Below are positions 14,981 to 50,737 of a DNA stretch of 64,000 bases, in pieces (position 1 is the first letter of the stretch; each line of letters begins with the position of its first letter). The DNA comes from a virus (Duplodnaviria > Heunggongvirae > Uroviricota > Caudoviricetes): IMG/VR virus record IMGVR_UViG_3300010396_000003, positions 1 to 64,000 of that record, one strand, 5' to 3'. The translations under genes and the position numbers were made by a program. The notes under the pieces are model-generated. The model was not told where the DNA came from and did no database searches. It saw nothing but the letters and a program-made list of their open reading frames with translations.

Positions 14981-15352
14981 ATGCGCTACGTTTCGTTGTT
15001 AGCTGTGCTCTTGATGTTGGGACCAATCGCTTCGGCAAAACCACACTGGTATTCCAGTAAAAGATTTTGGATTGCCCTTGGTATTCAGACTGCGGCAATG
15101 TCGGCAGATTACGCGGAATCACAGCATGCATTTCACCATGGCGCTATTGAGGCTGATCCGCTATTTGGTGAACGGCAGCCGAGCTTTGGAAGGATGTTTT
15201 CTATCGGATTGCCAATTGAAGTTGGCTATGCTTATGCGGATTACAAATTATCCGTTTCTAAACATAAGCTACTGCGTATTATTTCGCCGGCGCCAACTCT
15301 CTATCAGGTCGAAGAACATTCTTATTTGGCGGCAAAGGCAGCCAGTTATTGA
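14981..15352 (+). CDS. secreted hypothetical protein (signal peptide)
   Basis: Only plus-strand gene in the first 44 kb. N-terminal LLAVLLMLGPIASAKP signal peptide with its own promoter and RBS, so it looks like a moron-type accessory gene. Confidence 0.5.
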   Translation: MRYVSLLAVLLMLGPIASAKPHWYSSKRFWIALGIQTAAMSADYAESQHAFHHGAIEADPLFGERQPSFGRMFSIGLPIEVGYAYADYKLSVSKHKLLRIISPAPTLYQVEEHSYLAAKAASY

Positions 15353-29307: not shown

Positions 29308-29984
29308 TAAAGTGTTCGAGCATACGATTCAACGACGGTTTGGACTTCCGGCGGTATAGACCAGTTCTGGTAACGCGTCGATCCGGCGCCGCCTGACATG
29401 GAACGCGTAGCTTCATCCTGATACTTTCTGCGTTTGTAATTCTGCAACACTACAACATTCGCTGCCGTTTGAATGTCGAGCGGCGTTACGTCATAGCCAG
29501 CAGAATATTGCACATTGATATTTTGAACGCCGCGCCAGAATCTGAGCCCGGATCCTAAAGCTGAAAATGGACCGGAAGGCCAACCCCAGGTTCCGTACGT
29601 TCCCCATCCAGTTAAACTTGAACGCAGAGAAATGCTTTTTCCGGTGCCGTCGACTACCCATCCCTGTACGGCATATCCGCTGGATTGTTGCACGGCAATT
29701 CCGTTGATATTAACGGCGGTAACCGATCGGATCGGCCGGTTATTTAGAAATAGACGGTAAGTTCCTTTGCCGTCATACGTTTCATTGAAGTCGCAGATTG
29801 AATTAAATGGCGATTGCGTGAGGTCTCCGTTTTGATCACCATAACCAGTGAGCCATAGAAACATGGAACCCCACGCGGTTATGCATTGCTGGATTACGTC
29901 ATCATCGTTAATACTGGACGCAGATATTCCGGCCCAATTCTTAAAAATCGCAATCGACGTAAGGTCCAGCTTTGAAACTGTCAT
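29307..29984 (-). CDS. head-tail connector/neck protein candidate
   Basis: 225-aa ORF; call is by position only. Confidence 0.3.
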   Translation of the reverse strand: MTVSKLDLTSIAIFKNWAGISASSINDDDVIQQCITAWGSMFLWLTGYGDQNGDLTQSPFNSICDFNETYDGKGTYRLFLNNRPIRSVTAVNINGIAVQQSSGYAVQGWVVDGTGKSISLRSSLTGWGTYGTWGWPSGPFSALGSGLRFWRGVQNINVQYSAGYDVTPLDIQTAANVVVLQNYKRRKYQDEATRSMSGGAGSTRYQNWSIPPEVQTVVESYARTL

Positions 29985-30811
29985 TAGTAAACGTCTCCCG
30001 CCAACACGGCAGATGCAGGCATGTCACCAATGTATTCATACGTTCCCATGTGGGTCGTCCGCATGAACGGCATTAGATATGCCTTATAACCCATCGCGCA
30101 ACAGTCATGAATAAACCAATAATCTTCCGAGTCGTATTCACGCGTTTCTGGATTAATACCGCACTTAAAGAAATCCCAAATTGGACCTGGCAGAGAATTC
30201 GGATCACACCGAGGCTCATACCAGCGATCACTATAAACTTCTTTAAACTTCAAGAAGACCTCTCGCTTCACCATTAAAATACCGGTTCCTAAATGACGAA
30301 CCTGTTCCGGTTTCGCAAGATCAGCAATCGCAGTTTTTCCAGGAAGATAATTGACAACAAAACTGCCACCAATTCGCTTCAATTCTTCTGCGCTATATTC
30401 ACGGCTTCCGGGACGGCGGATAGCGCGCTGAATTCGATCCCACCTAATTTCCTTTCTGACGCAGGGAGCTCCGATGATATCGAGATCGGATTCAAGCATT
30501 GCAATAATATCCTCGGGCTCAAAACCAATATCGGCGTCGATGAATATAGCGTGGGTATATGGTTTTTTTTGACTGTCGAATCCCTGTTTCAAATAAGCAT
30601 CAGCCAGACGATTACGAGCCCGCGAAATCAACGATTCGTTGTATATACTCTGATAGCCCATTTCAATTGGGGGTTCACCGAGAGAACGCATTTTCTCGGA
30701 AAGATCGCGGATCAAATTGGTCAAACGAACAAAAGAATTGTGGTAATTGGAAGTAAGATTTCCCCCATACATCGGGGTTAAAACACAAAGCGATTTACCT
30801 TTAATTGACAA
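29984..30811 (-). CDS. GT-A fold glycosyltransferase (DxD)
   Basis: CVLTPMYGG N-terminus and HAIFIDADIGFEPEDIIAML DxD region typical of GT2-like enzymes. Confidence 0.45.
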   Translation of the reverse strand: MSIKGKSLCVLTPMYGGNLTSNYHNSFVRLTNLIRDLSEKMRSLGEPPIEMGYQSIYNESLISRARNRLADAYLKQGFDSQKKPYTHAIFIDADIGFEPEDIIAMLESDLDIIGAPCVRKEIRWDRIQRAIRRPGSREYSAEELKRIGGSFVVNYLPGKTAIADLAKPEQVRHLGTGILMVKREVFLKFKEVYSDRWYEPRCDPNSLPGPIWDFFKCGINPETREYDSEDYWFIHDCCAMGYKAYLMPFMRTTHMGTYEYIGDMPASAVLAGDVY

Positions 30812-31205
30812 TTGGGAGCCTCGAAAGGTCTTTTATCAAAAAATTCGAACCAATGCTAAGACATTCATGTATTATTCTCTTATGGAACCAAAAACCGTTG
30901 TAGCCCACAATGCACAGCTAACCGGGTCGTTTACGGAATTTCCGAATACAACAATCAAACAATCCGCAGGTTGGAAGGAACTGTCTTACGAAGATATGGA
31001 GAGTGCCGTTGAATACTTTGAACTTCGTGGATGGATTTCCAAAGATCAGGCTGGCATAATTCGTTCTCGTATAGCCAGGAAGCTGTAGGGAAATTGTCTC
31101 CTAAAGTCGCCTGGAAAAAGGTCTAAACCGTGAGCCACCAAAAATTCTGCACCGACTGCAATAAGTGGGTTGTTTTGAAGACAATCCAATCCTGGTCAAT
31201 TCACA

Positions 31206-31727
31206 TTACGAAGTCTTCCCATTTGCGAGCGGTAAAGATACGCTTGGGTCTAGTAAAATCAAGGAAGGAAAGTTCTTCCAAACCTCAGAAATACCGCCAT
31301 CCTTAAATTGCATTCTCATTTCGTCTGTTGGGTTTGCCGGTAATTCCTCAAGATAGAAGTGTGGATTATCTTTTATGTGACACCACTTCGCACCTTCGGC
31401 AAGTCCGCACGATGGCGCCGTGGCAAGAAGTTTCTGCCAAGCCGGATGGCTTAAATTCCAGTCCGGCTGACCCGGCATAATATCTTCCGGAACAAGGTCG
31501 ACAGCATACCCAAAGTTGTGCGCCGAATAACCTCCCGGCGTGTTTGTTACGATCTCTCCCGGTTTCGTTCTTCCTTGAGCATAGAGATTGTCTTCCTGAG
31601 CCCAGGTTCTCATTCCTGCGGTTACTTGGAGCGATAGACTAGGAAGCAATTGATCAAGTTGTATGATGCGTCGCGCAAGTTCTGGATGTATTTCTTTAAG
31701 TCTAGCCTGGGATGTTGCTGTAAACAT
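31206..31727 (-). CDS. peptidase M15 family endolysin (L-Ala-D-Glu / D-Ala-D-Ala peptidase-like)
   Basis: VTAGMRT...GGYSAHNFGYAVDLVP matches the SxHxxGxAxD zinc-binding signature of M15 peptidases. Confidence 0.7.
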   Translation of the reverse strand: MFTATSQARLKEIHPELARRIIQLDQLLPSLSLQVTAGMRTWAQEDNLYAQGRTKPGEIVTNTPGGYSAHNFGYAVDLVPEDIMPGQPDWNLSHPAWQKLLATAPSCGLAEGAKWCHIKDNPHFYLEELPANPTDEMRMQFKDGGISEVWKNFPSLILLDPSVSLPLANGKTS

Positions 31728-32134
31728 TATCGAGACCCCGCACGAACATTATTCGGAATTACATAGATACCGTCGTTCAAGGCGACCGGAATGGTCCATA
31801 TCCAAATGATATGACGGTATGATTTATCGGGGGCGTAATGCCATAAAAGGTGGTTTAGCGTTACAGTTCCCATTGTGTATCCTGCGGCCGTACCCCATAC
31901 TCCGATCGTATTCGGATGTTGACCGATGAAGGGTGCCGTTTCTATACAAGATGGACAATTTATTTCTGCAAAACGCGTACTCGCTGCATCGGCAGAAAAC
32001 GCGGCTGCAAGGATCACATCGGATGCGAGTAATTCTTTATGGGAATTAATATAATGCCACGCTTTTCCAAGCGGATTAGCGGTTGCCGCGCCACAAAATA
32101 TCGATAGACAGATTAATAGAATTAACGTCTTCAT
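31727..32134 (-). CDS. secreted hypothetical protein
   Basis: Signal peptide MKTLILLICLSIFCGAATA. Overlaps the endolysin start (ATGA). Confidence 0.4.
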   Translation of the reverse strand: MKTLILLICLSIFCGAATANPLGKAWHYINSHKELLASDVILAAAFSADAASTRFAEINCPSCIETAPFIGQHPNTIGVWGTAAGYTMGTVTLNHLLWHYAPDKSYRHIIWIWTIPVALNDGIYVIPNNVRAGSR

Positions 32135-32223
32135 TATTCCTCCCCAAAAAAATAAGAGCGCCTTTCCCAGGCGCTCTTATTTAGTGAAAAATTTCGCACA
32201 ACCACCGGATCCACCACGGCCAA

Positions 32224-32631
32224 TTACTGCACGGTGGCGGTTGGATTGGTGGGGGTGTTGGGGTTGGAGGGAAAGCTAGACGGGATCGCCACCGTCGCTA
32301 CGTTGCTTGGTCCACTCGTATTACCAATCGAGTCGACAGTATAAACAACATAGCTGTAGGTGGTGCTTACTGATAGTCCAGCAGCCGGATCGAGGAAGCT
32401 TGTTCCCAATACAAGTGAAGAATTCGCTTTCGTCCAAGTGCCAGAGCTCGTCACACACGTTCCCGTACAACGATAAACATTGTAGCCAGCAATAGGATTA
32501 ACATCCGAACCCTGAGAGGCCGCAGTCCATGATGCCAAAACACCATGTTGTGATGCTCCAGGTGCCTGTGCCATCGCCGGCACAGCGGAGACAATCAAAA
32601 ACAACAAAATAGGAAATAATTTCTTAACCAT
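32224..32631 (-). CDS. secreted fibronectin-III-like domain protein
   Basis: Start reassigned to MVKKLFPILLFLIVSAVPAMA (AGGAG RBS). GYNVYRCTG...TYSYVVYTVDSIGNTSGPS is FN3-like. Confidence 0.4.
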   Translation of the reverse strand: MVKKLFPILLFLIVSAVPAMAQAPGASQHGVLASWTAASQGSDVNPIAGYNVYRCTGTCVTSSGTWTKANSSLVLGTSFLDPAAGLSVSTTYSYVVYTVDSIGNTSGPSNVATVAIPSSFPSNPNTPTNPTATVQ

Positions 32632-32714
32632 CGTTTTCTCCTTTTTATTCAAGAGCCGGATCGTTCCCAGCGCTCCGGCTCCCGATTCGTGCGACCCTTC
32701 ATTGACACACGAAA

Positions 32715-32909
32715 TCAATGAGTTTCGTGATGAACAACCGCTTTTAGATCCATTTTGGGATGACGAAGTGGTTGTGTGATTGTTTGCACCGGCTTGTGAA
32801 ATATATGTTGCACGCCATGCTTAATCCCAACGACACCAGCATGTGCACCATAAATTAATAAACCGGCGAGTGCTATTCCGAGAATTACTTGTGGATCTGC
32901 GCTTTCCAT
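32715..32909 (-). CDS. small membrane protein (holin candidate)
   Basis: 64 aa with a TM helix (ILGIALAGLLIYGAHAGVVGI) and a charged His-rich tail. Confidence 0.3.
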   Translation of the reverse strand: MESADPQVILGIALAGLLIYGAHAGVVGIKHGVQHIFHKPVQTITQPLRHPKMDLKAVVHHETH

Positions 32910-32911
32910 GT

Positions 32912-33655
32912 TTATGCCGCCTTTAGAGCTTGAAGATCAGCCTGTAGGGTTTGGAGATCGAATCCGAAAATTGGGGTCTTCTGTGCTGCTGTCAACCAGT
33001 CTTGGGTAATAATTGCGTAAGCTTCATCAACATATGTCTTCCAAAATTCCCAAGACATTTGCTGGCGCTTTGCCCAAGTAATACATGTACAACCAAGAGA
33101 ACCATAACCAAGAACACAGACACAGTGACCACCGACGATATTTTTATCACTCGTATTGTTCCAGGCTTGTCCTGAGCTGAATTCATTCATCGCAGTCTCT
33201 GTAACGTTAAATCCAATGTCGAGACCGCCAAAGATTGTGATCGCTTGTTTAATTGCTGTTATATTTGAGGTGTCGATCTGAGCCCAGCCCAAAATCTTGC
33301 GATTGGCAATACCGGTAGTGCGCCAGTACTCAAGAACATCCGTAATAACGCAGCCATTGTCGTTCATACCGGTTTGCGGGTCATATCCACTAACAGCGGA
33401 ATAACCACGAATGATGTCCTGAAGGCTCGGAATATATAGACCGTAAGTACGCGAGCTCCATTCCATTTCAAGATGTCCAGGACTGGCGAATGTACAATCC
33501 CCGATTTTGTCATTGCCCATCATTGTCCAGTCGGAGATGTTGTATTCGTAGGCAAATGCCCGCGGCGGATCCGCTAACTTTACGTACTTCGATAAATCAA
33601 GCGTTAGCGGATGTTCTTTGCGCGGCAATTTGCCAAGCTTAAGGCTATTCATCAT
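32912..33655 (-). CDS. papain-like (C1-type) cysteine peptidase
   Basis: KIGDCTFAS (Cys nucleophile context) and GGHCVCVLGYG (His context, compare HAVxxVGYG in papain). Confidence 0.45.
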   Translation of the reverse strand: MMNSLKLGKLPRKEHPLTLDLSKYVKLADPPRAFAYEYNISDWTMMGNDKIGDCTFASPGHLEMEWSSRTYGLYIPSLQDIIRGYSAVSGYDPQTGMNDNGCVITDVLEYWRTTGIANRKILGWAQIDTSNITAIKQAITIFGGLDIGFNVTETAMNEFSSGQAWNNTSDKNIVGGHCVCVLGYGSLGCTCITWAKRQQMSWEFWKTYVDEAYAIITQDWLTAAQKTPIFGFDLQTLQADLQALKAA

Positions 33656-33660
33656 TCACC

Positions 33661-34281
33661 TTAGTAAGATCCGAAATGTAGTGTCCGGTACAACATTGAA
33701 TGCACGTGGATTTTATGTTTTGCCGTGTACGAATCCACCGCTTGGTTACCAGTTTTAACAGTCAACTGTGAATTATACGAACTCACGAAGGTCTTAAGTG
33801 GCAATGGAACCGTGCTCGATGCTAGAGATTCCCTCATGGTCACGGCTTGTCTGCAGTTCGGGATAACAGCTAGCACAGCTGTAACCGTGCCGGCAACAAG
33901 GGCGGACAGTGTAATGATTTTTGCCTGTGTCGCTTGATCTGAAATCTGCGCAAGAGACATAACCTGCGCTTCATCCGACGCGTAGGTATTGATTGCTGCC
34001 TGTAACTGTGAGCATGCGGTTGGAGCAGCACTAGCGGAAGCAGCAGCAAAGTCTGCCGCTAAAACCTTGATAGTTTCCGCGTCAGTATTGATTTTTGATG
34101 CGAGCGCAACGTTAATCGGCTGGCCCTTCGCAATGGCGATGATATTCAGGATGTTGATTAATGCTGGTGCGGCTGCAACCAAGATATTATCAACGGTGGT
34201 CACCCAAGAAGCGGAACATCCGGAAATTACCATCACAAAACACAACGACAGAGCCATAAGTGATTTTGAAAATAGTTTCAT
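33661..34281 (-). CDS. lipoprotein
   Basis: Signal peptide with lipobox VISGC. Ala-rich mature protein. Confidence 0.45.
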   Translation of the reverse strand: MKLFSKSLMALSLCFVMVISGCSASWVTTVDNILVAAAPALINILNIIAIAKGQPINVALASKINTDAETIKVLAADFAAASASAAPTACSQLQAAINTYASDEAQVMSLAQISDQATQAKIITLSALVAGTVTAVLAVIPNCRQAVTMRESLASSTVPLPLKTFVSSYNSQLTVKTGNQAVDSYTAKHKIHVHSMLYRTLHFGSY

Positions 34282-34311: not shown

Positions 34312-35547
34312 TTATTTCGCACCAATGCCAACAGTTTTTTCGACAACACCCATTGGATCGATAAGTACTTTATTTTCATAATTAAGAGTTTTGTATTCCA
34401 GCCACGCGGTCGCGATAACAATTACTGGACTTATTAAAACCTCGGCAAGTGAATGGGAATGTGGTGCCTGTGGATCGTGCGTCTTAACGGTATACCCCAT
34501 GCCCATTAGTAATTCTTTGAGTTTTAATCCTGGAGATTCTTCTGTTACTGGCGTGTTCGGCTTATAGCTTTGACCAAGAATTCCGATTGTACCGAAATTT
34601 CTGTAGTTACATTTGTTTTGGATTTCGGCTGCAATCGAATAAATTAATGCTTCATTTAGATCGTCGGTTGCTACAGAAAGCAACGGAGCTGTCAATCCTC
34701 GAGCCGTATACTGAAAAAGGCGATTGTCTCGCGGCAAACATGGACCTCCGTATGGCATTCCAAAACGCAAACAAGAACGCCCTACGCGTCGATCAGATCC
34801 GACCGCGTCCAAGACTACGTGTGGATTCGCGCCTAACTTCCTAGCAAGTGCCCCGACCTGGTTGGCAAAGCTAATTTTTGTCGTAAGGGCACAATTAACA
34901 GAGATCTTCGCCAGTTCAGCTTCGATCAATGTCATTACTTTGTATCCCTCTTGAACCTTGTAATTCATCCCACGCTCATATAATTCTGTTGTTAGATCCG
35001 CTGCTTTTTTGCTCGACACACCGAACAAACCGAAGTCTGGATATTGGAGATTATCGATAACACTTCCGAGAGCAATGAATTCAGGCTTATACACCAAGTG
35101 AAATGGAAGTTCCTGCATCGCTTCGCGCAATAATGGCAGAAAAACCTTCTCACAAGATCCAGGTGTGACCGTAGAATTGATGATAAAAACATAGTCAGAA
35201 ATACGGCGCGCATAGACCTCATGCGCAACAGATTTCATGGCTACAATTAGATATTCGTTGGAAAAACTGCCATCGGCAAGACTTGGTGTGAGGGTTATAA
35301 AGCAGCAAGCTTCTGTACCGCGGATAGCATCGAGGACTTGAGCTGTGGCGCGAAGGGTTCTGCCGTGCGTTTTCTTTATTAGACGTTCAAGACCCGGTTC
35401 TTGAACGGGAGCCCTACCGGTGTTAATTGCCAGTACTTTTGTTTCGTCAAGATCGAGGCCAACTACATTAACGTCATTTGCAGCAAATAACGCCGCAATG
35501 GGGCTACCCAACTTCCCCAAACCACATACACAAATGTTTTTGATCAC
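34312..35547 (-). CDS. UDP-glucose/GDP-mannose 6-dehydrogenase family (nucleotide-sugar dehydrogenase)
   Basis: N-terminal Rossmann ICVCGLGKLGSPIAALFA, catalytic GMPYGGPCLPRD (compare GGSCFPKD), 411 aa. Confidence 0.8.
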   Translation of the reverse strand: MIKNICVCGLGKLGSPIAALFAANDVNVVGLDLDETKVLAINTGRAPVQEPGLERLIKKTHGRTLRATAQVLDAIRGTEACCFITLTPSLADGSFSNEYLIVAMKSVAHEVYARRISDYVFIINSTVTPGSCEKVFLPLLREAMQELPFHLVYKPEFIALGSVIDNLQYPDFGLFGVSSKKAADLTTELYERGMNYKVQEGYKVMTLIEAELAKISVNCALTTKISFANQVGALARKLGANPHVVLDAVGSDRRVGRSCLRFGMPYGGPCLPRDNRLFQYTARGLTAPLLSVATDDLNEALIYSIAAEIQNKCNYRNFGTIGILGQSYKPNTPVTEESPGLKLKELLMGMGYTVKTHDPQAPHSHSLAEVLISPVIVIATAWLEYKTLNYENKVLIDPMGVVEKTVGIGAK

Positions 35548-35583
35548 GCACTACAGATACACAAAACGGTGAACCGATGATAA

Positions 35584-36315
35584 TTATTTTTTGTGGGGGC
35601 AATCTTCCCAGTGATAAGATTCGTTTCCAAGTGCCATGTCAATTAGATACCACGTTCCGTCTTTTGCTTTAGCAAAATCAATAGACCAATAATCTCCTAG
35701 TTCGGCGCCGGCTGCTTCAGCCAATGGCGTCAAAAAACTAATTTCTTCTTCCGGCTCATTGTTTAGAATAGCCAGTCGTTCTTTCCACGTTCCTTTGGTA
35801 CCTGGTTCGAATATCATCGGCTGCCCGTTAAAGACTTCTTCCGGCCAATAGGGATGATGACATTCAATTTTCCCGTTGCGGACAAAATAACGACGCTCGC
35901 GATTGATGGGCATTTCACCACGGAAGGCTTTAAATGAAATCTCGAGATCCAGGAATTCGCGGAATACAATTGCTTCATACGGCAAACCGAACAGACCTGC
36001 CAACTCATGGAATTCAAGAAGGGATACTAGGTTTTTGCTCAGTACATTCATATTGGGAACATAGCAAGTATTTTTCCACGAGTGTTTTTCTGACGACAAA
36101 TCGGTTCGAAGAAAAAGAGGGAAGCCAAATTTATCCGCCTCTTTCATGAGGTCACTAACAAGACCAGTAAAGTACGGACATTCATCCCCATCGAAAATCG
36201 GAAACACCTTCTCGCGATCTATCGGGATAATTTTCGTCCGCGGGACAGGAATGCCAAGCTTTGATACGCGCGGAAACCAATAGGTAAGGCTAGTTTTGTA
36301 TGGTTTAGAAGGCAT
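35584..36315 (-). CDS. ATP-grasp-like protein
   Basis: FPLFLRTD...EAIVFREFL...YWSIDFAKAKDGTWYLIDMALGNE resembles ATP-grasp motifs. Start set to the internal Met to limit overlap. Confidence 0.3.
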   Translation of the reverse strand: MPSKPYKTSLTYWFPRVSKLGIPVPRTKIIPIDREKVFPIFDGDECPYFTGLVSDLMKEADKFGFPLFLRTDLSSEKHSWKNTCYVPNMNVLSKNLVSLLEFHELAGLFGLPYEAIVFREFLDLEISFKAFRGEMPINRERRYFVRNGKIECHHPYWPEEVFNGQPMIFEPGTKGTWKERLAILNNEPEEEISFLTPLAEAAGAELGDYWSIDFAKAKDGTWYLIDMALGNESYHWEDCPHKK

Positions 36316-37141
36316 GTCCACACTGATTACAACGGCGCATGCCACCAGCCATCCCGAGGGCGCCACTACCGCATTTCGGACAAGCCTTCTTGGATATAGG
36401 GCCGGATGCATGCGCTATCACCGGTTGACCACTAAGCTGCACCGGTGAATGGTCTTTCGATGTGCGGAAGTAATAGAAATACATCGGTTCGTTGATATAA
36501 TGCTCCGATCGCACAACCTTCAATGTTCGAAGTTCATTCGCCCAACGCGCATCTTCGCCATGTCCGCCCGACATTTTTACTTTTAGCGCGAGCTCTGTCT
36601 TTATCGGATTTACATGGGATAGATCGCGATAGTATGCACTGTCGTCTTCTGACCACTTTGTATATTTCAGCGAATGGTAGGTTGGTTTCTGTTTATTTCC
36701 ATCGATAAATAACTGAATGTTGTAGCCGATGTAGTCGACTCCATCGAGTAACGGATAAATTTTAGAGAAATAATCATCGGCAACGATATCGTCATCATCG
36801 ATAAAAACACTATATTCACCCTTGGCTTGCTCGCGGAGTTGCTGACGGTTCGTACCGAGGTCCATTGATTCATCAAAAATACGGGTCAAGACTTCGACAT
36901 GATAATTTCCGTTACCGATTTGCTGTGTTAGAGAAGACATCAGTCGAGAGAGATATGGTGCGCGTGATGGTTGCGTAAGAATCATCACGGTAAGCTTTGG
37001 ACCGGTGATTTTCGGAGTTTCGATTGAATCCAAAGGCTTCGAGTCTTTCTTTACATCTTCCTCGGGTGTGGCGACTATGGGAGTTCCTTCGCGCACCACA
37101 ACATCAACCTTTGGAAGTGGATCTTTCTTTTTCTCGCTCAT
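36305..37141 (-). CDS. GT2-like glycosyltransferase with C-terminal zinc ribbon
   Basis: MILTQPSRAPYL and the acidic EYSVFIDDDDIVADD DxD stretch. C-terminal CPKCGSG...CNQCGH. Confidence 0.5.
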   Translation of the reverse strand: MSEKKKDPLPKVDVVVREGTPIVATPEEDVKKDSKPLDSIETPKITGPKLTVMILTQPSRAPYLSRLMSSLTQQIGNGNYHVEVLTRIFDESMDLGTNRQQLREQAKGEYSVFIDDDDIVADDYFSKIYPLLDGVDYIGYNIQLFIDGNKQKPTYHSLKYTKWSEDDSAYYRDLSHVNPIKTELALKVKMSGGHGEDARWANELRTLKVVRSEHYINEPMYFYYFRTSKDHSPVQLSGQPVIAHASGPISKKACPKCGSGALGMAGGMRRCNQCGHAF

Positions 37142-37818
37142 GTGTTCTCCATGACTGCTCGTAGTTTTTCGATTGCAGCCTCACGTTCCGGCCGCAATTT
37201 TTCATAAAGCAAATCGGGTCGATCTTTCATATGCCGATCAATGCGTTCCTGGTACGTTTGATCGCATTCCGATCTGCCAAACCAAAAGTGTAAATGATCG
37301 ACAATAATCGGCAAGCATTTTCTTCTATTTAATGCATTCGCGCAATCATTTAGAAATGTATCACCGTAATCGCTCGAAAACCAAGGCGCAATAAAGAAAC
37401 CAACAACGTCCGCCCAGCGTCTATGGACAAAACCGTGTGCGCCAAAATCTTTGTAATAGCCGCCGCTGTCGTATGGATGTGTAAACCAGATTTTATCTGA
37501 AGTTTGGGAGTAGAAATTCTCAACAATGATATCCCACCCATATGTTCGATAAACAACATCATCGTTTGACTGCTGCCATATATCTCCAGTGGCAATCTCA
37601 GCGCATTTATTCCAACAATCGCTCAACGTAATTCTCGGCCCAATAATCTTCTTAACTGCAAGTTGATCAGCCATAGCCGCACTTTCCGTATCATCGTTAT
37701 CGATGTATAGAATTATCTCAATTGGTTTCGATGAGGTAAGCCAAACCGATTCAATCATCCGTTGGAGGATTAGCGGTCGCTTACGCGTTGGCAGAAGTAC
37801 GCTGATCATATGCATCAT
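37138..37818 (-). CDS. glycosyltransferase (GT-A fold)
   Basis: ISVLLPTRKRPLIL and IILYIDNDD motifs. Confidence 0.45.
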   Translation of the reverse strand: MMHMISVLLPTRKRPLILQRMIESVWLTSSKPIEIILYIDNDDTESAAMADQLAVKKIIGPRITLSDCWNKCAEIATGDIWQQSNDDVVYRTYGWDIIVENFYSQTSDKIWFTHPYDSGGYYKDFGAHGFVHRRWADVVGFFIAPWFSSDYGDTFLNDCANALNRRKCLPIIVDHLHFWFGRSECDQTYQERIDRHMKDRPDLLYEKLRPEREAAIEKLRAVMENT

Positions 37819-38533
37819 TCTTCATAAAAAGATTGAAATCAAATTCACGGATAACGCTCCACTCCGGGAGCAAAGAAAGCAATTCGGGACGCTCTGCTTG
37901 CCCGTCATACAATGCCTTTTCTTCTGCTTCAATGAACAAATAACGTGCGTGACGCAATGCTTTCTGTCCGCCAGTTATCATTTGGTTCTCGGCACCCTGG
38001 ATATCCACCCACAATAAATCGATCCGCGGCAACGCATATGCATTAAATAGATAATCCAATGTAAAGCATGGGATACCACCGGGAATCGGCCGAAAATCAT
38101 ACCATGGATTTTTTTCAAGATGTCTGGTCGGCATTCGAACGGAACCGGATCCGCGCCCTTCTGGTGTGTAGCATGCCCAAAAATCGCAATTACCGTTACG
38201 ATCAGATATGGCGCCGTAGAGATGACGTCCAGGAATATGCCTGTCGGCTATTCTGCGGTAATTATCTGGATCCGCTTCAACGGTAACAATAATTGGACTT
38301 TTATCTCTGACCGCTTGAAACATCCACTCGGTGTCTTCTCCACAATATGCTCCCAATTCAACAATACAGGGCGCGACTGGACATGAATTTAAAACACTCA
38401 GAACCGCACGCTGTTCATCTGCACTCGCCATATCTACTCCGGTCTCTGAAATACGGCTACACCAACCAATGACGGAAACACTAAATGATGCCAATTCCTT
38501 TGAGATGCAAAACCGGGATACAAACCGGGACAT
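37781..38533 (-). CDS. FkbM-family methyltransferase
   Basis: IVELGAYCGEDTEWM...IVTVEADPDNYRRI resembles FkbM-domain MTases. Confidence 0.45.
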   Translation of the reverse strand: MSRFVSRFCISKELASFSVSVIGWCSRISETGVDMASADEQRAVLSVLNSCPVAPCIVELGAYCGEDTEWMFQAVRDKSPIIVTVEADPDNYRRIADRHIPGRHLYGAISDRNGNCDFWACYTPEGRGSGSVRMPTRHLEKNPWYDFRPIPGGIPCFTLDYLFNAYALPRIDLLWVDIQGAENQMITGGQKALRHARYLFIEAEEKALYDGQAERPELLSLLPEWSVIREFDFNLFMKNDAYDQRTSANA

Positions 38534-38973
38534 TCTTTACAGGCATCATGAAAGGCGACAATTCCCAGCGGTGTGATGTTATTTTCGTTAAGACTAAGCA
38601 ATTCTGATAGACGCACATCCTGAGTTCCGGAATCGATATGTGCAAAATCAATCTGCCTGAATTGTGAAATTAGCTCTTTCCCTTCGCAATGATGGACCGT
38701 TACCGGCAAATACGATAAGCGTTGACGCCCAGCGGAAATCTTCGTTGCATCAATATCGCAGGTGTGGAGATGTCCATACCCATTGTCGGCTAAAGCTTTG
38801 CCGATCCATTCGGCAGAATCGCCAATATAGAGACCTGTTTCGATACAAACATCTGGCTTCATAATGCGCACGAGTGCATATAAAAGAGCACCAACCTCGA
38901 GCTCTACCCCCATCCATAAACGTTTAACGTAGCGGTCAAACGCTCGCGGGCACTCTGGTAATTTTTGATACAT
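38434..38973 (-). CDS. class I SAM-dependent methyltransferase (CmcI/O-MT-like)
   Basis: VCIETGLYIGDSAEWIGKAL glycine-rich SAM motif and a downstream acidic DIDAT. Confidence 0.45.
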   Translation of the reverse strand: MYQKLPECPRAFDRYVKRLWMGVELEVGALLYALVRIMKPDVCIETGLYIGDSAEWIGKALADNGYGHLHTCDIDATKISAGRQRLSYLPVTVHHCEGKELISQFRQIDFAHIDSGTQDVRLSELLSLNENNITPLGIVAFHDACKECPGLYPGFASQRNWHHLVFPSLVGVAVFQRPE

Positions 38974-39964
38974 CCTTGTTTTCTCCGGCAGAAAGGAGCT
39001 CAGTAAACATTTGTTCCAGGGTGAATTTCTTTCTAACTTTCCACATACCGGCTTCCGCTATTTTTTCTCGCTCATCGTCGTGTTCAAGGTAATATCGAAT
39101 TTGCGCGATATTGTCCGGCATCATTCCCATGTCGTAATAAGAAATCTCTTTACCGTTCTCAAAAAGGCTTAGATTATTTTTGGCTGGTGCTGGAAATTTT
39201 GGATACATCACAAAAGTTCCAGATGCCATAACCTCAAAAACCTTTTCAACGATCAGGCGCGACATTGGCGGCAAACAAAAGAAGATTTTCAATTGACGAT
39301 AGTTTTCCGCAAGCAGCTTCATACTTTCTTCGGAGCGGATCCCGCCGATATCTTGGACCACGGCTTGTCCGACATTGAAATTTAAATCGTTGCCGGCGCC
39401 GCGCGCTAGATTCTCAAGGTATGCTCTACGGGTTGGATAAAGAGTTCCGATAAAACCGATCTCATATCTTTTATCTTTCAAATAGCCGAAGCGCGGGTTA
39501 AACATTTCCGTATCTACTGCAAACGGCATCCATTTTCCGCCAAAACGTTCTGCGTCTTGTACGGCCGGAAAATAGAAATAATTTGCCCAGGTTCGTAGTT
39601 CCATCCAGCGATCGGGAAGTCCAAGATCCGTGCGGCAAAAAGATTCATCGAATTTTGCAACAATGGGAACTTTGATCTTACTCCAGTTTTCAAAACCATA
39701 AACGATATCGAGCCATGGCTGCGTATACTCGTGATACATGCTTAAAATCACGTCGCATTCATTTAATTGCTCAATCGTCGGAGCAAGTTTTCGGAGTTTT
39801 TCTACCTGTAGGATGCTTGGTTGATTGTGGTGGGAGACATTACCTGGGAAAGTAAAATGCAGAACTTCATGTCCCATTCTTTTTAGGACATTGAAATAAC
39901 CACCTACCGCATTCCACCCGCCAAGAACATTGTACGGATGAAGCAAACCAACTTTTTTAGGCAT
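38936..39964 (-). CDS. GT-B glycosyltransferase (CgeB/GT1-like)
   Basis: C-terminal EKVFEVMASGTFVMYP resembles the GT1 E..EA.A.G.P motif. Confidence 0.35.
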   Translation of the reverse strand: MPKKVGLLHPYNVLGGWNAVGGYFNVLKRMGHEVLHFTFPGNVSHHNQPSILQVEKLRKLAPTIEQLNECDVILSMYHEYTQPWLDIVYGFENWSKIKVPIVAKFDESFCRTDLGLPDRWMELRTWANYFYFPAVQDAERFGGKWMPFAVDTEMFNPRFGYLKDKRYEIGFIGTLYPTRRAYLENLARGAGNDLNFNVGQAVVQDIGGIRSEESMKLLAENYRQLKIFFCLPPMSRLIVEKVFEVMASGTFVMYPKFPAPAKNNLSLFENGKEISYYDMGMMPDNIAQIRYYLEHDDEREKIAEAGMWKVRKKFTLEQMFTELLSAGENKDVSKITRVPASV

Positions 39965-43651: not shown

Positions 43652-44887
43652 TTATGCAACGGCGCGGTGCGCCTGAACCTCTTCAGAAATTTCCTTCGTT
43701 TCTTCATCAACCATTTCAAGTAACGTTCCGATCAAACTCTCGACGTTTTCAGCAAGCATTGCCGGCTGTTTTGAATCTGCGTCTCCCTCCCACTCTTGTT
43801 CCATGCAAATACAGTGAAAGAGGCAAACGATGTCCTGGATTGCAAATGCCATCCTGGAGACTTCCATCATTCCTTTGTTTAATTGACCAAGACTCAAATC
43901 AAGATCGAGAATGCGGCGGCTAACAATCTTGTCCAGACGCTGATTGATATAGCGACGAACCGCCTTGCGCATAATCGTAAATGTTGCCGCCAGCTTCTCT
44001 TTCTCTTCAGAAACATCGATTCCATGTTTCTTGGCAGCAGCCACGATCCGGGCATGCACCCTCGCACGCTCTCCCGAAGGTATTCCTTGCGTCTGATTGA
44101 AACGCGCAAGAGCATTGCGAATATGGGATTTTGTTTTTGCATCACTCGAAAATTTAATAGGCAATTTCCATGTTTCGGTCTTATCCGGATCTCCAACATA
44201 AGCAAATGCAGATGAAGGAAGATCCTCGCCGGCAACACGCTTTGTCTTGCCTTTCACAACATGAATACTTGCCGCCTTCAAAAGTTCAACTTCCTGCTCG
44301 AGCGCAGTAATGCGATCAGCTTGAATAACCGGCGCTTCGGTCTTCGAAAATTTGCGAATTTCTACCGCGCCATCGGTCTTGATATAGGCAAAATGGGCGC
44401 TTGCCAAACATGGATTATCGACTAACGAAACCTCGGAAGGATTCGCAACATAACGCATACAGCCCTTATAGACTGGGTCTGGCGTCATATCGCCAACCTT
44501 ACGGCCGCCCTGGCTGAATCCGGTATAAACGCCCTCATTGACTTTCTTCCATGCGTCGTCATCTACAACCTTAAAACCCATGAAAATTTCTTTTTGATCA
44601 TCGCGGAATTCGTATCCGATACCCTTGCCGACCGCTACGAGTTGGTGCATTTCGCGCAAATTACCGACAGATTTTCCATCTGTGGCTTTCTGCATTTCAT
44701 CGATCCAGGCGCGATAATAAGGTTTTGATTCTTCGTACGCGCAAACTTCATTGTCTTTGTCTGGCTGCTCAGCCGTAACAATGCCCCATACTTCGCGCTT
44801 TTGACTGTCTACCTTGGCGAAGGGGATGAATTTTGAAAACTTATCCATATCAATAGGGACACTAAGGACGTAAACGAACCGATGCAA
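43652..44887 (-). CDS. prohead protease (HK97 S78-like)
   Basis: KREVWGIVTAEQPDKDNEVCAYEESKPYYRAWIDEMQKATDGKSVGNLREMHQ fits the prohead protease N-domain pattern. Long helical C-terminal extension. Confidence 0.45.
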   Translation of the reverse strand: MHRFVYVLSVPIDMDKFSKFIPFAKVDSQKREVWGIVTAEQPDKDNEVCAYEESKPYYRAWIDEMQKATDGKSVGNLREMHQLVAVGKGIGYEFRDDQKEIFMGFKVVDDDAWKKVNEGVYTGFSQGGRKVGDMTPDPVYKGCMRYVANPSEVSLVDNPCLASAHFAYIKTDGAVEIRKFSKTEAPVIQADRITALEQEVELLKAASIHVVKGKTKRVAGEDLPSSAFAYVGDPDKTETWKLPIKFSSDAKTKSHIRNALARFNQTQGIPSGERARVHARIVAAAKKHGIDVSEEKEKLAATFTIMRKAVRRYINQRLDKIVSRRILDLDLSLGQLNKGMMEVSRMAFAIQDIVCLFHCICMEQEWEGDADSKQPAMLAENVESLIGTLLEMVDEETKEISEEVQAHRAVA

Positions 44888-48162: not shown

Positions 48163-48246
48163 TGGTGCGTCAGGGGAGATTCGAACTCCCATGTCTTTCG
48201 ACGGAAGGGTTTGAGCCTTCTGCGTATACCGTTCCACCACTGACGC
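48163..48246 (-). tRNA. tRNA-Leu(CAA)
   Basis: Acceptor GCGTCAG/CTGACGC, anticodon stem GAAGG/CCTTC, loop CTCAAAC, long variable arm, T-arm GGGAGTTCGAATCTCCC. Confidence 0.65.
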
Positions 48247-48725
48247 TAATCCTTTTTCTTCGTAAAACTGATCAACTGCAAGTTTACACCAATTGCCGGT
48301 TCCGAAGGTGTTTCATAGTTCGGCGCTACCTGATCAGCATGCAAATAGCCCGTAACCAAGGCCGGCGGTGCACATGTTTCATTTCCATTCGGAGACGTTG
48401 GAATACAGCCCATCACAAAGAATGTTGTCGTCGTCCATGGCGGAGCGACCGTGAATGTAACTCCGAAATTTAGATTTGAATTCCTAACGGCCGGACTATT
48501 AATCCTGCCAGCAAACAGATAGGAATTACCGTCACTCTCTTTCACGCATCCGGTTGGAGAATAAAGAGAGGTACAAAGAACTCCAACTAGAAAATGATCC
48601 GCGGTATTACCTGGCTTCGAATAGTCGTAATTCCAAGAAAGAACAACAGTGCTCTGCGACGTGTTCTGAGCTCGCACACATGTCGCTATCAAAGCCAAGA
48701 AGATTACTTTGAGTAAGACTCGCAT
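48246..48725 (-). CDS. secreted hypothetical protein
   Basis: 159 aa with signal peptide MRVLLKVIFLALIATCVRA, Cys-containing and beta-rich, embedded in the tRNA array. Confidence 0.4.
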   Translation of the reverse strand: MRVLLKVIFLALIATCVRAQNTSQSTVVLSWNYDYSKPGNTADHFLVGVLCTSLYSPTGCVKESDGNSYLFAGRINSPAVRNSNLNFGVTFTVAPPWTTTTFFVMGCIPTSPNGNETCAPPALVTGYLHADQVAPNYETPSEPAIGVNLQLISFTKKKD

Positions 48726-49637: not shown

Positions 49638-49857
49638 AAACCGCAAATAGTTTCTGCCGCACGCGATACCCTGTTCCGCCATCATTACCATTAAGTTCGA
49701 CCATTTCGATGAATGGGCACTCGTCCAGTTCCGTAATTTCGCAGCATAGACCGTGATATTTGCGGAAGACACGCACCGCATCAGTCGAGCACGTCGCCTC
49801 TACGCACGTTACGCCTAAACCATGATCTCCTTCCCATTCCACTACCCACATGCTCAA
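49636..49857 (-). CDS. hypothetical small protein
   Basis: 73-aa ORF between tRNA genes. Confidence 0.25.
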   Translation of the reverse strand: MSMWVVEWEGDHGLGVTCVEATCSTDAVRVFRKYHGLCCEITELDECPFIEMVELNGNDGGTGYRVRQKLFAV

Positions 49858-49980
49858 TGCTTCCTCCTAATCTCCCGCACGAAATACAATGCTACGCAGC
49901 CGATTAGAATCGCCACGCATCCTACCGCGAAAGCTGCGGCGCCAAGCATGAATCCCAGTATATAACTCACGATTGTCATT

Positions 49981-50055
49981 TGGCAGCTCCACGGAGAATC
50001 GAACTCCGATCTTCTTGTTAGGACCAAGACATCCTTTCCATTGAACGATGGAGCC
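49981..50055 (-). tRNA. tRNA-Arg(CCT)
   Basis: Acceptor GGCTCCA/TGGAGCT, anticodon stem TCTTG/CAAGA, loop GTCCTAA. Confidence 0.6.
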
Positions 50056-50737
50056 AAAAAAAATTGGCGGAGTTATAAGCAGTGGGGTTTATGGCCGCCT
50101 GATATCGCAGGATCGACTACATGCCCGGCGTTTGGATCCTCCGGCGAGCTCGGCTTTTCGTCCGGCGGCTGTCCCTTGGTAATCAGGTCTTTAGTCCCTG
50201 TTCTGCCCACGTCCTCACGGATAGCGGCATCCGCCACAACGAACGGCGTTCTATAATTCACGTTGATGCAAAAAGGAGTTATAAACTCCCGCAACGCGAA
50301 CACGCCGCCCAAGAGCCGTCTGGAAACCGCAGTTTATTCCGGCTGGCTACGAGAGAATTGACCACCAGATTCTTCACATCCGGTGTCGTACCGTCAATTC
50401 AACCAACCCAAGCTGCACGGCTCTATCTCAATACTGACCGAACGTTTAACGCCAACGCCCGCGACTTCACTCGTAATGCGCTGGGCCACTCTCACGAGTT
50501 AAGCTTCCCTATCCCAGCCTTAGTGTGTGATTTCCACACATTCGGGGTCGTGACTTTAGAGTTTCTGTCGCTTCTACGCTAAACCGTCCAACCCTCGCGG
50601 GATTACATGGAATTTTGGCGTAGCCATCCTAGATCGACTTTTTGATTTAAGCTGCCTTTGCTCTGTGGCACCGGAGCCAATCACGGCTAGTCGTCCAACC
50701 GTTGATGTGCGCTTTTCTCGGTCAAGCTTCAAGAAAA
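50056..50737. other. about 680-nt GC-rich noncoding tract within the tRNA array (candidate structured RNA)
   Basis: No protein-like ORF (the 153-aa ORF 50121-50582 is Arg-rich and of low complexity). Higher GC than the flanks, no tRNA fold found, and bounded by tRNA-Arg genes. Confidence 0.3.

Follow-up and report, generated by a model that had tools for sequence, protein, structure and literature searches.

Knowledge of how phages lyse diderm bacteria rests almost wholly on enterobacterial holin, endolysin and spanin models, and in about 15% of such phages no outer-membrane step is known. A third lysis function, directed at the outermost layer of the envelope, is encoded near the holin and endolysin genes (PMC6139136; PMC5707550), and spanins are absent from about 15% of the phages of Gram-negative hosts (bioRxiv 10.1101/515445; PMC6139136). 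The subject of the present analysis is a cassette of six open reading frames (ORFs) at positions 31206-34281 of a 64,000-nucleotide stretch of viral DNA (IMG/VR record IMGVR_UViG_3300010396_000003, positions 1 to 64,000; the whole of that stretch is called 'the window' below), which is itself a section of a 152,445-bp metagenome contig (ENA ERZ27256653, k141_4613762). The cassette encodes an M15 endolysin, a papain-fold cysteine peptidase and a lipoprotein, and we consider it somewhat better than an even chance (roughly 55%) that it is a lysis cassette in which a canonical M15 part is accompanied by an accessory, envelope-directed module formed by the lipoprotein and the peptidase, carried by a tailed phage of a diderm soil host.

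The spanins (lambda Rz/Rz1 and T1 gp11) and the mycobacteriophage LysB resemble this cassette in that they, too, involve a lipoprotein and a third function beside holin and endolysin. Mature Rz1, however, is an unstructured, proline-rich protein of ~40 residues, and u-spanins possess a C-terminal transmembrane segment that the window lipoprotein lacks; no i-spanin partner was identified within the window, and LysB is a serine esterase, whereas the enzyme encoded here is a cysteine peptidase. Set beside the o-spanin and u-spanin definitions of Kongari et al. (PMC6139136), the product is indeed a lipobox lipoprotein in a lysis cassette, but its mature part, a helical bundle of ~184 residues, departs from both classes, the o-spanins having a short periplasmic domain that is largely unstructured or beta and is paired with an i-spanin.

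The lysin domains of clan CA (CHAP and NlpC/P60, as in the CHAP domain of LysK and the N4 domain of D29 LysA) are papain-like Cys-His hydrolases, as is the window peptidase. Both groups are found in lysis cassettes and both are combined with glycosidase domains, the CHAP and NlpC/P60 domains within modular lysins (PMC4126393; bioRxiv 10.1101/2025.01.22.634383). The CHAP (C51) and NlpC/P60 (C40) domains are compact and single-lobed, in contrast to the two-lobe C1 fold of the window peptidase; CHAP and NlpC profiles gave no match to that peptidase; and peptidoglycan cleavage, a feature of the CHAP/NlpC lysins, is putative for the enzyme described here. The N4 domain of D29 LysA was considered as a precedent and set aside, being C40/NlpC rather than C1.

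The papain-type C1A enzymes (xylellain of Xylella fastidiosa, cathepsins K and L, papain) display the two-lobed fold also seen in the window peptidase. Like theirs, its catalytic Cys opens a helix, six positions after a polar residue, and its His belongs to a GGH motif of the beta lobe; an N-terminal segment aligns with their pro-regions. The window peptidase is nonetheless only about 13-16% identical to them, has Asn for the oxyanion Gln and no identifiable His-orienting Asn, lacks the secretory signal and the long inhibitory prodomain typical of C1A, and is encoded beside a lipoprotein partner in the lysis cassette of a phage; it would resemble C1A in its working but is no sequence-level member of that family.

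The cassette, its endolysin and the peptidase-lipoprotein pair

The six ORFs, listed in their order of transcription with the evidence for each, are as follows:
33661..34281, minus strand: lipoprotein, 206 amino acids (aa), with lipobox ISGC and Cys22 (hydropathy, homologue hidden Markov model [HMM], AlphaFold2 [AF2])
32912..33655, minus strand: papain-fold (C1-like) cysteine peptidase, 247 aa (PHROG 19005, AF2, Foldseek)
32715..32909, minus strand: single-transmembrane protein, 64 aa (hydropathy)
32224..32631, minus strand: FN3-like secreted protein, 135 aa (signal peptide, sub-threshold FN3 profiles)
31727..32134, minus strand: ORFan with a signal-like N-terminus, 135 aa (hydropathy, homologue search)
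31206..31727, minus strand: M15 (VanY-type) zinc peptidase endolysin, 173 aa (Pfam, PHROG, motif, solved relatives)

Junctions between these ORFs measure 1-90 nt, their Shine-Dalgarno sites are mostly good, and the cassette, with all six genes on the minus strand, is confirmed as real. Megablast against 50,697 phage records found no match to the 10 kb around it. A promoter and terminator scan of 29.5-36 kb returned sites that were fewer than, or no more numerous than, those in shuffled sequence, and NCBIfam and PADLOC scans of the cassette proteins returned a single FN3-like linker match and nothing else.

The proposal that the cassette is built around an M15 endolysin bearing an SxHxxGxAxD signature is well supported. 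The 173-aa protein carries the motif S68-A-H70-N-F-G-Y-A-V-D77 together with H123, scores 31.8 bits against Pfam Peptidase_M15_4 (PF13539; cut-off 25), matches PHROG endolysin families at 1e-21, and has as its closest solved relatives the Ply500 L-Ala-D-Glu peptidase (7.8e-19) and LysB4 (1.2e-17). Judged from its sequence, it is an M15 zinc peptidase endolysin, and is predicted to be an L-alanyl-D-glutamate endopeptidase. Alignment with Ply500 (Listeria phage A500), LysB4 (Bacillus phage B4) and Serratia ChiX spans its whole catalytic domain, and the SxHxxGxAxD motif and distal His are common to all of them; unlike that group, the window endolysin consists of one domain and lacks a cell-wall-binding domain, the usual arrangement in phages of diderm hosts. 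Since a signal peptide is also absent, it would by the canonical model need a holin.

The C1-type peptidase without a signal peptide that the initial annotation had described has likewise held up. The strings KIGDCTFAS and GGHCVCVLGYG are both present in the 247-aa protein (246 aa in public gene calls, which begin at the second Met), and no hydrophobic segment, signal peptide or transmembrane segment was found in it. Its likeness to C1 is borderline by sequence alone: Pfam C1 (PF00112) scores 16.2 bits, below the cut-off of 20.7, and is touched (E<=0.1) by two of 30 family members, with none reaching the cut-off; a related 250-aa protein, at locus L167, has a precomputed PF00112 match, and PHROG 19005 matches the window protein at 7.6e-31. 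The fold assignment accordingly rests on structure. An AF2 model built with 30 homologues (predicted local distance difference test [pLDDT] 93.5, predicted template-modelling score 0.91) gave 159 Foldseek matches in the PDB at E<=1e-3, with TM-scores of 0.5-0.64 among those listed, and the best 50 of the 159 are all papain-type cysteine proteases or their precursors, nearly all of them C1A; xylellain is the top match (8.4e-10), and procathepsin K, Der p 1, papain and cathepsins L, S and B also appear. By this model, a two-lobe papain (C1-type) fold is confirmed, and the check that had been named for the assignment, profile support for a C1/CHAP-like fold, which sequence alone would leave borderline, is decided in its favour by these structural matches.

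The residues that make up the putative active site are conserved as well. Asn48, Cys54, His177 and Asp210/Glu211 are invariant in the family (30 homologues, 39-64% identity), and Cys54 and His177 fall opposite the catalytic residues of both xylellain and cathepsin K: the alignment with cathepsin K extends across the His motif, and a profile alignment with xylellain sets GDC opposite GSC and GGH opposite GGH. The spacing of Asn48 and Cys54 equals that of papain Gln19 and Cys25, placing the invariant Asn48 at the position of the oxyanion Gln, and candidates for the equivalent of the His-orienting Asn are Q198, D210 or E211. Ahead of the catalytic helix runs an N-terminal arm of ~45 residues (KLGKLxPKxxPxTLxLxxY) that is conserved, extended and well modelled; because the best structural matches are pro-forms, a short autoinhibitory arm is possible. 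Phage Peptidase_C1 proteins in BFVD also match, and more distant phage C1-fold proteins there carry the names 'Peptidoglycan binding-like' and 'N acetylmuramidase'.

The lipoprotein encoded upstream has a Sec-type signal with lipobox ISGC ending at Cys22, and is the sole credible lipobox ORF of the window. Among its 102 close homologues, which include proteins of Terriglobales metagenome-assembled genomes, C22, W26 and C143 are invariant and C90 is near-invariant, and the conserved Cys90 and Cys143 fit with an oxidising periplasmic location. Its AF2 model (pLDDT 84.4) is all-helical, a four-helix bundle with small C-terminal helices; compared with the PDB, it matched nothing below E=1, the insignificant top rows being Cry-toxin helical domains and designed bundles. 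A hydrophobic stretch at 122-140 was considered as a u-spanin-like anchor and rejected, since it forms a bundle helix in the model and homologues carry D, E or S there.

The lipobox and the adjacency to a glycosylation cluster, both noted initially, stand; what has changed is that the lipoprotein gene is not a mere neighbour but a conserved upstream partner gene of the peptidase. Of the 13 closest IMG/VR loci, 12 (L087-L093, L095-L099) have a member of its family, identified with an HMM, directly upstream of the peptidase gene or its homologue (the 'C1 gene'); the HMM places one likewise in L122, L126, L127, L006/L008, L075, L005 and L082, and L167-L169 have the lipoprotein gene in that position too. 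Fifteen of the ~22 loci bearing the pair have an endolysin (M15_4, M15_3, Hydrolase_2 or T4-type lysozyme) within a few genes. Good twin-arginine motifs (among them SRRSFMG, TRRGFIQ and SRRTFIK) precede the lipobox in 12 of 19 members of the lipoprotein family, unlike the window's own subfamily, which is Sec-type; the partners of twin-arginine translocation (Tat) type are those of L087, L089, L092, L093, L097-L099, L122, L126, L127, L005 and L006. A Terriglobales chromosomal cassette, present on more than 20 contigs and flanked at its end by host genes, is made up of the same set of components as the window's: an M15_3 enzyme, a 75-aa two-segment protein, a 114-aa protein (a transmembrane segment plus a helical domain), the lipoprotein, an FN3-like secreted protein and the C1 protein.

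The peptidase family beside endolysins, in fusions and across genomes

The neighbourhood of the C1 gene across other genomes carries much of the argument for a role in lysis. Pfam was run on the products of about 300 genes lying no more than three genes away from the C1 gene at 80 IMG/VR loci, and identified GH25 (5 neighbours), Hydrolase_2 (4), Peptidase_M15_4 (4), Holin_LLH (3), Rv2525c-like (2), Amidase_2 (2), Phage_lysozyme (1) and GH19 (1). As a positional control, HMMs for GH25, M15 and Hydrolase_2 were run against every ORF of the 12-kb loci (82 phage loci from IMG/VR and GenBank together); endolysins were matched in 23 loci, every one of them no more than 2 kb from the C1 gene and 21 of them no more than 1.5 kb from it, in a sample in which 72% of the flanking DNA lies further out. 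Endolysins of several unrelated types are thus found near the C1 gene far above chance, in a non-random arrangement.

Individual loci illustrate the same association. In GenBank MW202816, a complete genome in which the order is a 161-aa multi-hydrophobic (holin-like) protein, a 122-aa lipoprotein, an amidase and the C1 protein, the C1 gene overlaps the amidase stop codon; elsewhere it lies between or beside small transmembrane proteins and an endolysin (for example, in L112), and in L091 and L092 it is followed by a 94-102-aa two-segment protein, a 51-aa two-segment protein, and then an M15 or Hydrolase_2 enzyme. Coiled-coil proteins with a C-terminal transmembrane segment (that is, tail-anchored) recur beside M15 in related cassettes (L087 4059-4472, L088 7553-7963, L091 3091-3744 and L093 3899-4348); the window has no such counterpart.

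Domain fusions provide a second line of evidence. Of the best 150 representatives of the family, 105 are plain single-domain proteins, eight begin with a hydrophobic anchor or signal, and others have additional domains. The fused proteins were assigned to the peptidase family by profile scores of 270-310 bits, and include the following:
P0279: Pesticin-type lysozyme (PF16754, 6.7e-34) followed by C1, from Pfam
P0297: Rv2525c-like glycoside-hydrolase domain, middle region and C1, from Pfam
P0232 and P0239: C1 followed by Rv2525c-like domain, from Pfam
P0276: Phage_r1t_holin (33.3 bits, cut-off 26.9) followed by C1, from Pfam
P0271: C1 followed by a PLD-like domain, from Pfam
P0230: lipoprotein signal (LSGC), Pro/Thr linker and C1, by inspection
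P0228, P0258, P0286 and P0312: N-terminal transmembrane segments followed by C1, by inspection
P0326: Sec signal followed by C1, by inspection
L130: a fused GH25-C1 ORF, found in the positional control

The gene for P0279 directly follows tail genes of the window's type, which is the place expected for an endolysin. Modular or membrane-tethered endolysins are built in this way, and the signals, anchors and lysin-like partners would place the C1 domain outside the cytoplasm.

The suggestion that a papain-like peptidase is uncommon in a lysis or late cassette did not survive a wider search. A word-indexed search returned 359 homologues, none with a Pfam domain, and a profile search of 1.84 billion representatives (50%-identity clusters) returned 6,445 at E<=1e-3, of which 2,839 reach E<=1e-30. 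Relatives are present on 381 IMG/VR contigs and at no fewer than 349 places in GTDB species genomes, mostly of Acidobacteriota and also of Mucilaginibacter, Gemmatimonadales, Actinomycetota, Planctomycetota and others. The family, which recurs beside endolysins, is therefore widespread but unannotated: PHROG 19005, seeded by gp890 of Komagataeibacter phage phiKX1 (the cultured exemplar, which matches the family at 9e-115), is annotated as 'unknown function', and a literature search found no published function for it.

Several features of the family's relatives were noted in passing. Chromosomal C1-like genes at L012, L029, L043, L062 and L064, and at ~40 further genome loci, all from Acidobacteriota, encode an extra N-terminal extension of ~35 residues; in 12 loci the gene is followed directly by one for a 350-aa protein that has several hydrophobic segments. 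Six genes (P0227, P0257, P0280, P0303, P0318 and P0331) match the profile in two stretches, and in P0227 the insertion follows profile position 55, adjoining the catalytic Cys; Pfam, run on 32 C1 homologues (these six among them) that have extra sequence at either terminus or a split match, yielded nothing but intein and homing-endonuclease domains: two proteins carry Intein_splicing and LAGLIDADG_3, and one carries HNH_3.

A proposed mechanism and its rivals

In the mechanism that we propose, the lipoprotein, and probably also the secreted FN3 protein, would be placed in the periplasm during late expression, as the peptidase and the M15 enzyme build up in the cytoplasm. A holin, perhaps the 64-aa single-transmembrane protein, would then permeabilise the inner membrane and allow both enzymes to enter the periplasm; in the canonical part of the system, the cytoplasmic M15 L-Ala-D-Glu endopeptidase would reach the wall via that membrane lesion. 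The C1-like enzyme would cut a second envelope target, either a peptidoglycan peptide bond or a protein or peptide link between the wall and the outer membrane, and the lipoprotein might position or regulate it. We infer the activity of the peptidase, its substrate, its interaction with the lipoprotein, its holin dependence and the identity of that holin. A peptide bond of the peptidoglycan is the target favoured by the fusions to muramidase-like domains, and its cleavage would complement that by a glycosidase or at L-Ala-D-Glu; the papain-type fold, the dedicated lipoprotein and the lack of a visible spanin pair in the window leave room for a tether between wall and outer membrane. Of the roles offered in the initial annotation (second lytic enzyme, virion-maturation or ejection protein, or effector), the first fits best, given the synteny with endolysins and the fusions to lysozyme-like and holin domains.

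Seen at the level of the family, the peptidase appears to be a catalytic module new to lysis cassettes, accompanied by a lipoprotein partner of its own, and it is for this C1-fold lysis module, rather than for any single locus, that novelty is claimed. The family lacks Pfam coverage and comprises thousands of clusters, mostly from phages of soil Acidobacteriota, Bacteroidota, Gemmatimonadota and Actinomycetota, so that the present reading offers a starting point for annotating PHROG 19005 and many 'hypothetical proteins' of soil viromes. Cleavage of peptidoglycan, if true, would supply lysin engineering with a new class of enzymatically active domain; cleavage of a tether between wall and outer membrane, if true, would represent a new solution to the third lysis step.

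A number of observations weigh against this assignment to lysis. The window peptidase has no export signal, and holin families match nothing in the cassette. About two thirds of the phage loci have no recognised endolysin nearby, the HMMs of the positional control were seeded from the neighbours themselves, and about five of its loci are near-duplicates. In phiKX1, the peptidase gene lies beside an anti-repressor, ~4 kb and seven genes from an endolysin-like gene. Many chromosomal homologues in Acidobacteriota (281-294 aa) have no signal and stand amid genes for GGDEF, GH1, gatB and TonB-type receptor proteins, not in prophages; since these are ordinary cellular genes, the family is not exclusively one of lysis, and has a cellular, possibly cytoplasmic, role too. 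A literature search for Peptidase_C1 together with endolysin returned nothing relevant, and we know of no papain-family C1 enzyme that cleaves peptidoglycan.

The alternative that survives best, although we regard it as doubtful, is that the pair performs the outer-membrane step, with the lipoprotein, in the outer membrane, and the peptidase replacing or supplementing spanins by cutting tethers between outer membrane and peptidoglycan, in a manner functionally like that of LysB. The presence of a single lipobox ORF in 64 kb and the lack of a visible i-spanin/o-spanin pair there agree with such a role, as do the roughly 15% of Gram-negative-host phages without spanins; the scan for spanins covered 64 kb of the 152-kb contig, however, and i-spanin-like or small lipoprotein genes do accompany the C1 gene in related cassettes (a 114-aa product in L167, one of 122 aa in MW202816). 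Papain-family enzymes hydrolyse proteins and peptides, and a protein tether would suit them better than D-amino-acid stem peptides; the domains fused to C1 are nevertheless of muramidase type, as in ordinary modular endolysins. Finally, the twin-arginine signals of 12 of 19 lipoproteins, beside a signal-less folded enzyme, suggest co-export of the peptidase by hitchhiking in some lineages, but the window lipoprotein is itself of Sec type, so hitchhiking cannot apply to it and its peptidase would depend on a holin. A bolder formulation would make the lipoprotein and peptidase a previously unrecognised two-component envelope-disruption system of soil-diderm phages, in which the lipoprotein (Tat-exported in most lineages) docks the peptidase or carries it across the inner membrane, and the peptidase severs the links between outer membrane and wall as a proteolytic alternative to spanin-mediated fusion; we consider this speculative and unlikely.

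It is also unlikely that the lipoprotein and peptidase are effectors or a moron, that is, host-modifying or superinfection-exclusion cargo of the kind often inserted beside lysis genes, which are a common moron site. The variable position of the pair (before the portal gene in L169, and adjoining an anti-repressor in phiKX1), the stand-alone chromosomal homologues in non-phage contexts and the glycosylation genes of the surrounding region would all suit such cargo. The pair is embedded in its operon, however, with junctions of 2-5 nt and no promoter- or terminator-like site above shuffled expectation; endolysins cluster within 2 kb of the C1 gene, and its fusions to lysozyme-like and holin domains are hard to explain in this way.

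A cytoplasmic or virion protease without envelope action (serving in capsid or tail maturation, activation of lysis proteins or anti-defence, or ejected with the virion) would account for the missing signal peptide, for the location of the gene inside a late structural operon between head and connector genes, and for the zymogen-like regulation to which the conserved, extended N-terminal arm and the pro-forms heading the structural matches (xylellain, procathepsins) point. Such a role is nevertheless very unlikely: the window has another candidate for a head-maturation protease, at 43652-44887 (the ground on which a primary prohead-protease role was rejected and the virion-maturation role suggested earlier appears improbable), no linkage to portal, scaffold or capsid genes is seen across loci, the PADLOC scan gave no matches, and the lipoprotein and Sec signals and membrane anchors of the family place the domain outside the cytoplasm.

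The remaining cassette proteins and the surrounding operon

The accessory, envelope-directed reading favoured here would require a holin, and the 64-aa protein is the sole holin or membrane-anchor candidate within the cassette. The single transmembrane segment on which its earlier designation as a holin candidate was based is present, at the N-terminus and ahead of a basic, His-rich tail; support from a holin family is not, since the protein matched no Pfam, PHROG or NCBIfam family. It has no homologue in 166 related loci, and its similarity to the 114-aa protein of L167 is weak and limited to the transmembrane segment. No i-spanin-like ORF or i-spanin/o-spanin pair was seen within the window.

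Both of the proteins that had been described as bearing signal peptides do have a signal or signal-like N-terminus, although the FN3 match of one is sub-threshold and the other is an ORFan. For the FN3-like protein, the start codon is the ATG at 32631, which gives 135 aa, rather than the TTG further upstream at 32718; a signal peptide (cleavage site AMA|QA) is followed by a single FN3-like domain and a tail rich in Pro, Thr and Asn. PF00041 scores 17.3 bits against a threshold of 25 (E=0.0056), the NCBIfam CbhB FN3 region matches at 6.5e-6, and the FN3 domain of chitinase A1 at E=0.021, with the typical SWxxS...GYxVY pattern. A homologue of 34% identity (E=2e-7) is encoded in the related Terriglobales cassette of L167, and for that reason the protein is counted as a recurrent member of the cassette set; homologues also adjoin the C1 genes of L122 and L112. 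The 135-aa ORFan, whose gene overlaps the endolysin start by 1 nt, found only itself among 5.8 billion proteins. It weakly resembles L098 6825-7301 (minus strand; E=0.003) and the window ORF 14981-15352 (plus strand; E=0.049), two small signal-bearing products that have in common an AAxSADxxxS/T motif; the former weakly matches DUF5658.

Outside the cassette, the window contains the following features that bear on its setting:
49854-50057, minus strand: 67-aa holin-like protein (two transmembrane segments, basic C-terminus), encoded 17 kb away from the cassette; no Pfam family
48246-48725, minus strand: signal-peptide protein with an FN3-like 'VVLSWNYDYS' start; no Pfam family
43652-44887, minus strand: candidate head-maturation protease, 411 aa (weak matches to head-maturation-protease PHROGs)
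34312-39964, minus strand: seven-gene glycosylation cluster (UDP-glucose dehydrogenase, R2K/ATP-grasp-like protein, two GT2 and one GT1 glycosyltransferases, two methyltransferases)
30867-31088, plus strand: 73-aa ORF, called in the public annotation and without a family match
29984-30811, minus strand: glycosyltransferase (GT)-like protein, 275 aa (PHROG 1574; weak Anp1 match)

Transcription proceeds from the candidate head-maturation protease through genes for 291-aa and 652-aa proteins and the glycosylation cluster to the cassette, and continues through the 275-aa GT-like protein, head-tail adaptor and neck proteins, a 969-aa ORF, a DUF2460 protein and a 1210-aa Phage-tail_3/Rcc01698_C protein. 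The 411-aa protein at 43652-44887, called as 398 aa in the public annotation with a precomputed DUF6582 match, is likely a prohead protease or scaffold fusion, and the 969-aa ORF, which has no family match, is taken to be the tape measure. Because it is flanked by head-region genes on one side and head-tail and tail genes on the other, the cassette belongs to the late structural operon of a siphovirus-like, uncultured phage, whose host is probably a diderm soil bacterium of the Acidobacteriota (Terriglobales).

The sugar-modification cluster lies within that late operon, between the head-region genes and the lysis cassette; its UDP-glucose dehydrogenase gene (Pfam E about 1e-30), the last of the seven to be transcribed, adjoins the cassette at 34312 and is preceded in transcription by the genes for GT1, the two methyltransferases, the two GT2 and the ATP-grasp-like protein, in that order. 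It recalls the virion-glycosylation clusters of mycobacteriophages, with modification of the host surface as an alternative role. On the other side of the cassette, the 73-aa ORF lies in the 395-bp gap between the endolysin and GT-like genes, and is on the plus strand in an operon that otherwise lies entirely on the minus strand. Homologues of the GT-like protein, 27-29% identical, are encoded convergently beside chromosomal C1-like genes in L078, L081, L084 and L085, which are Acidobacteriaceae/Sulfotelmatobacter loci, and thus represent a second, unexplained co-localisation with the peptidase family.

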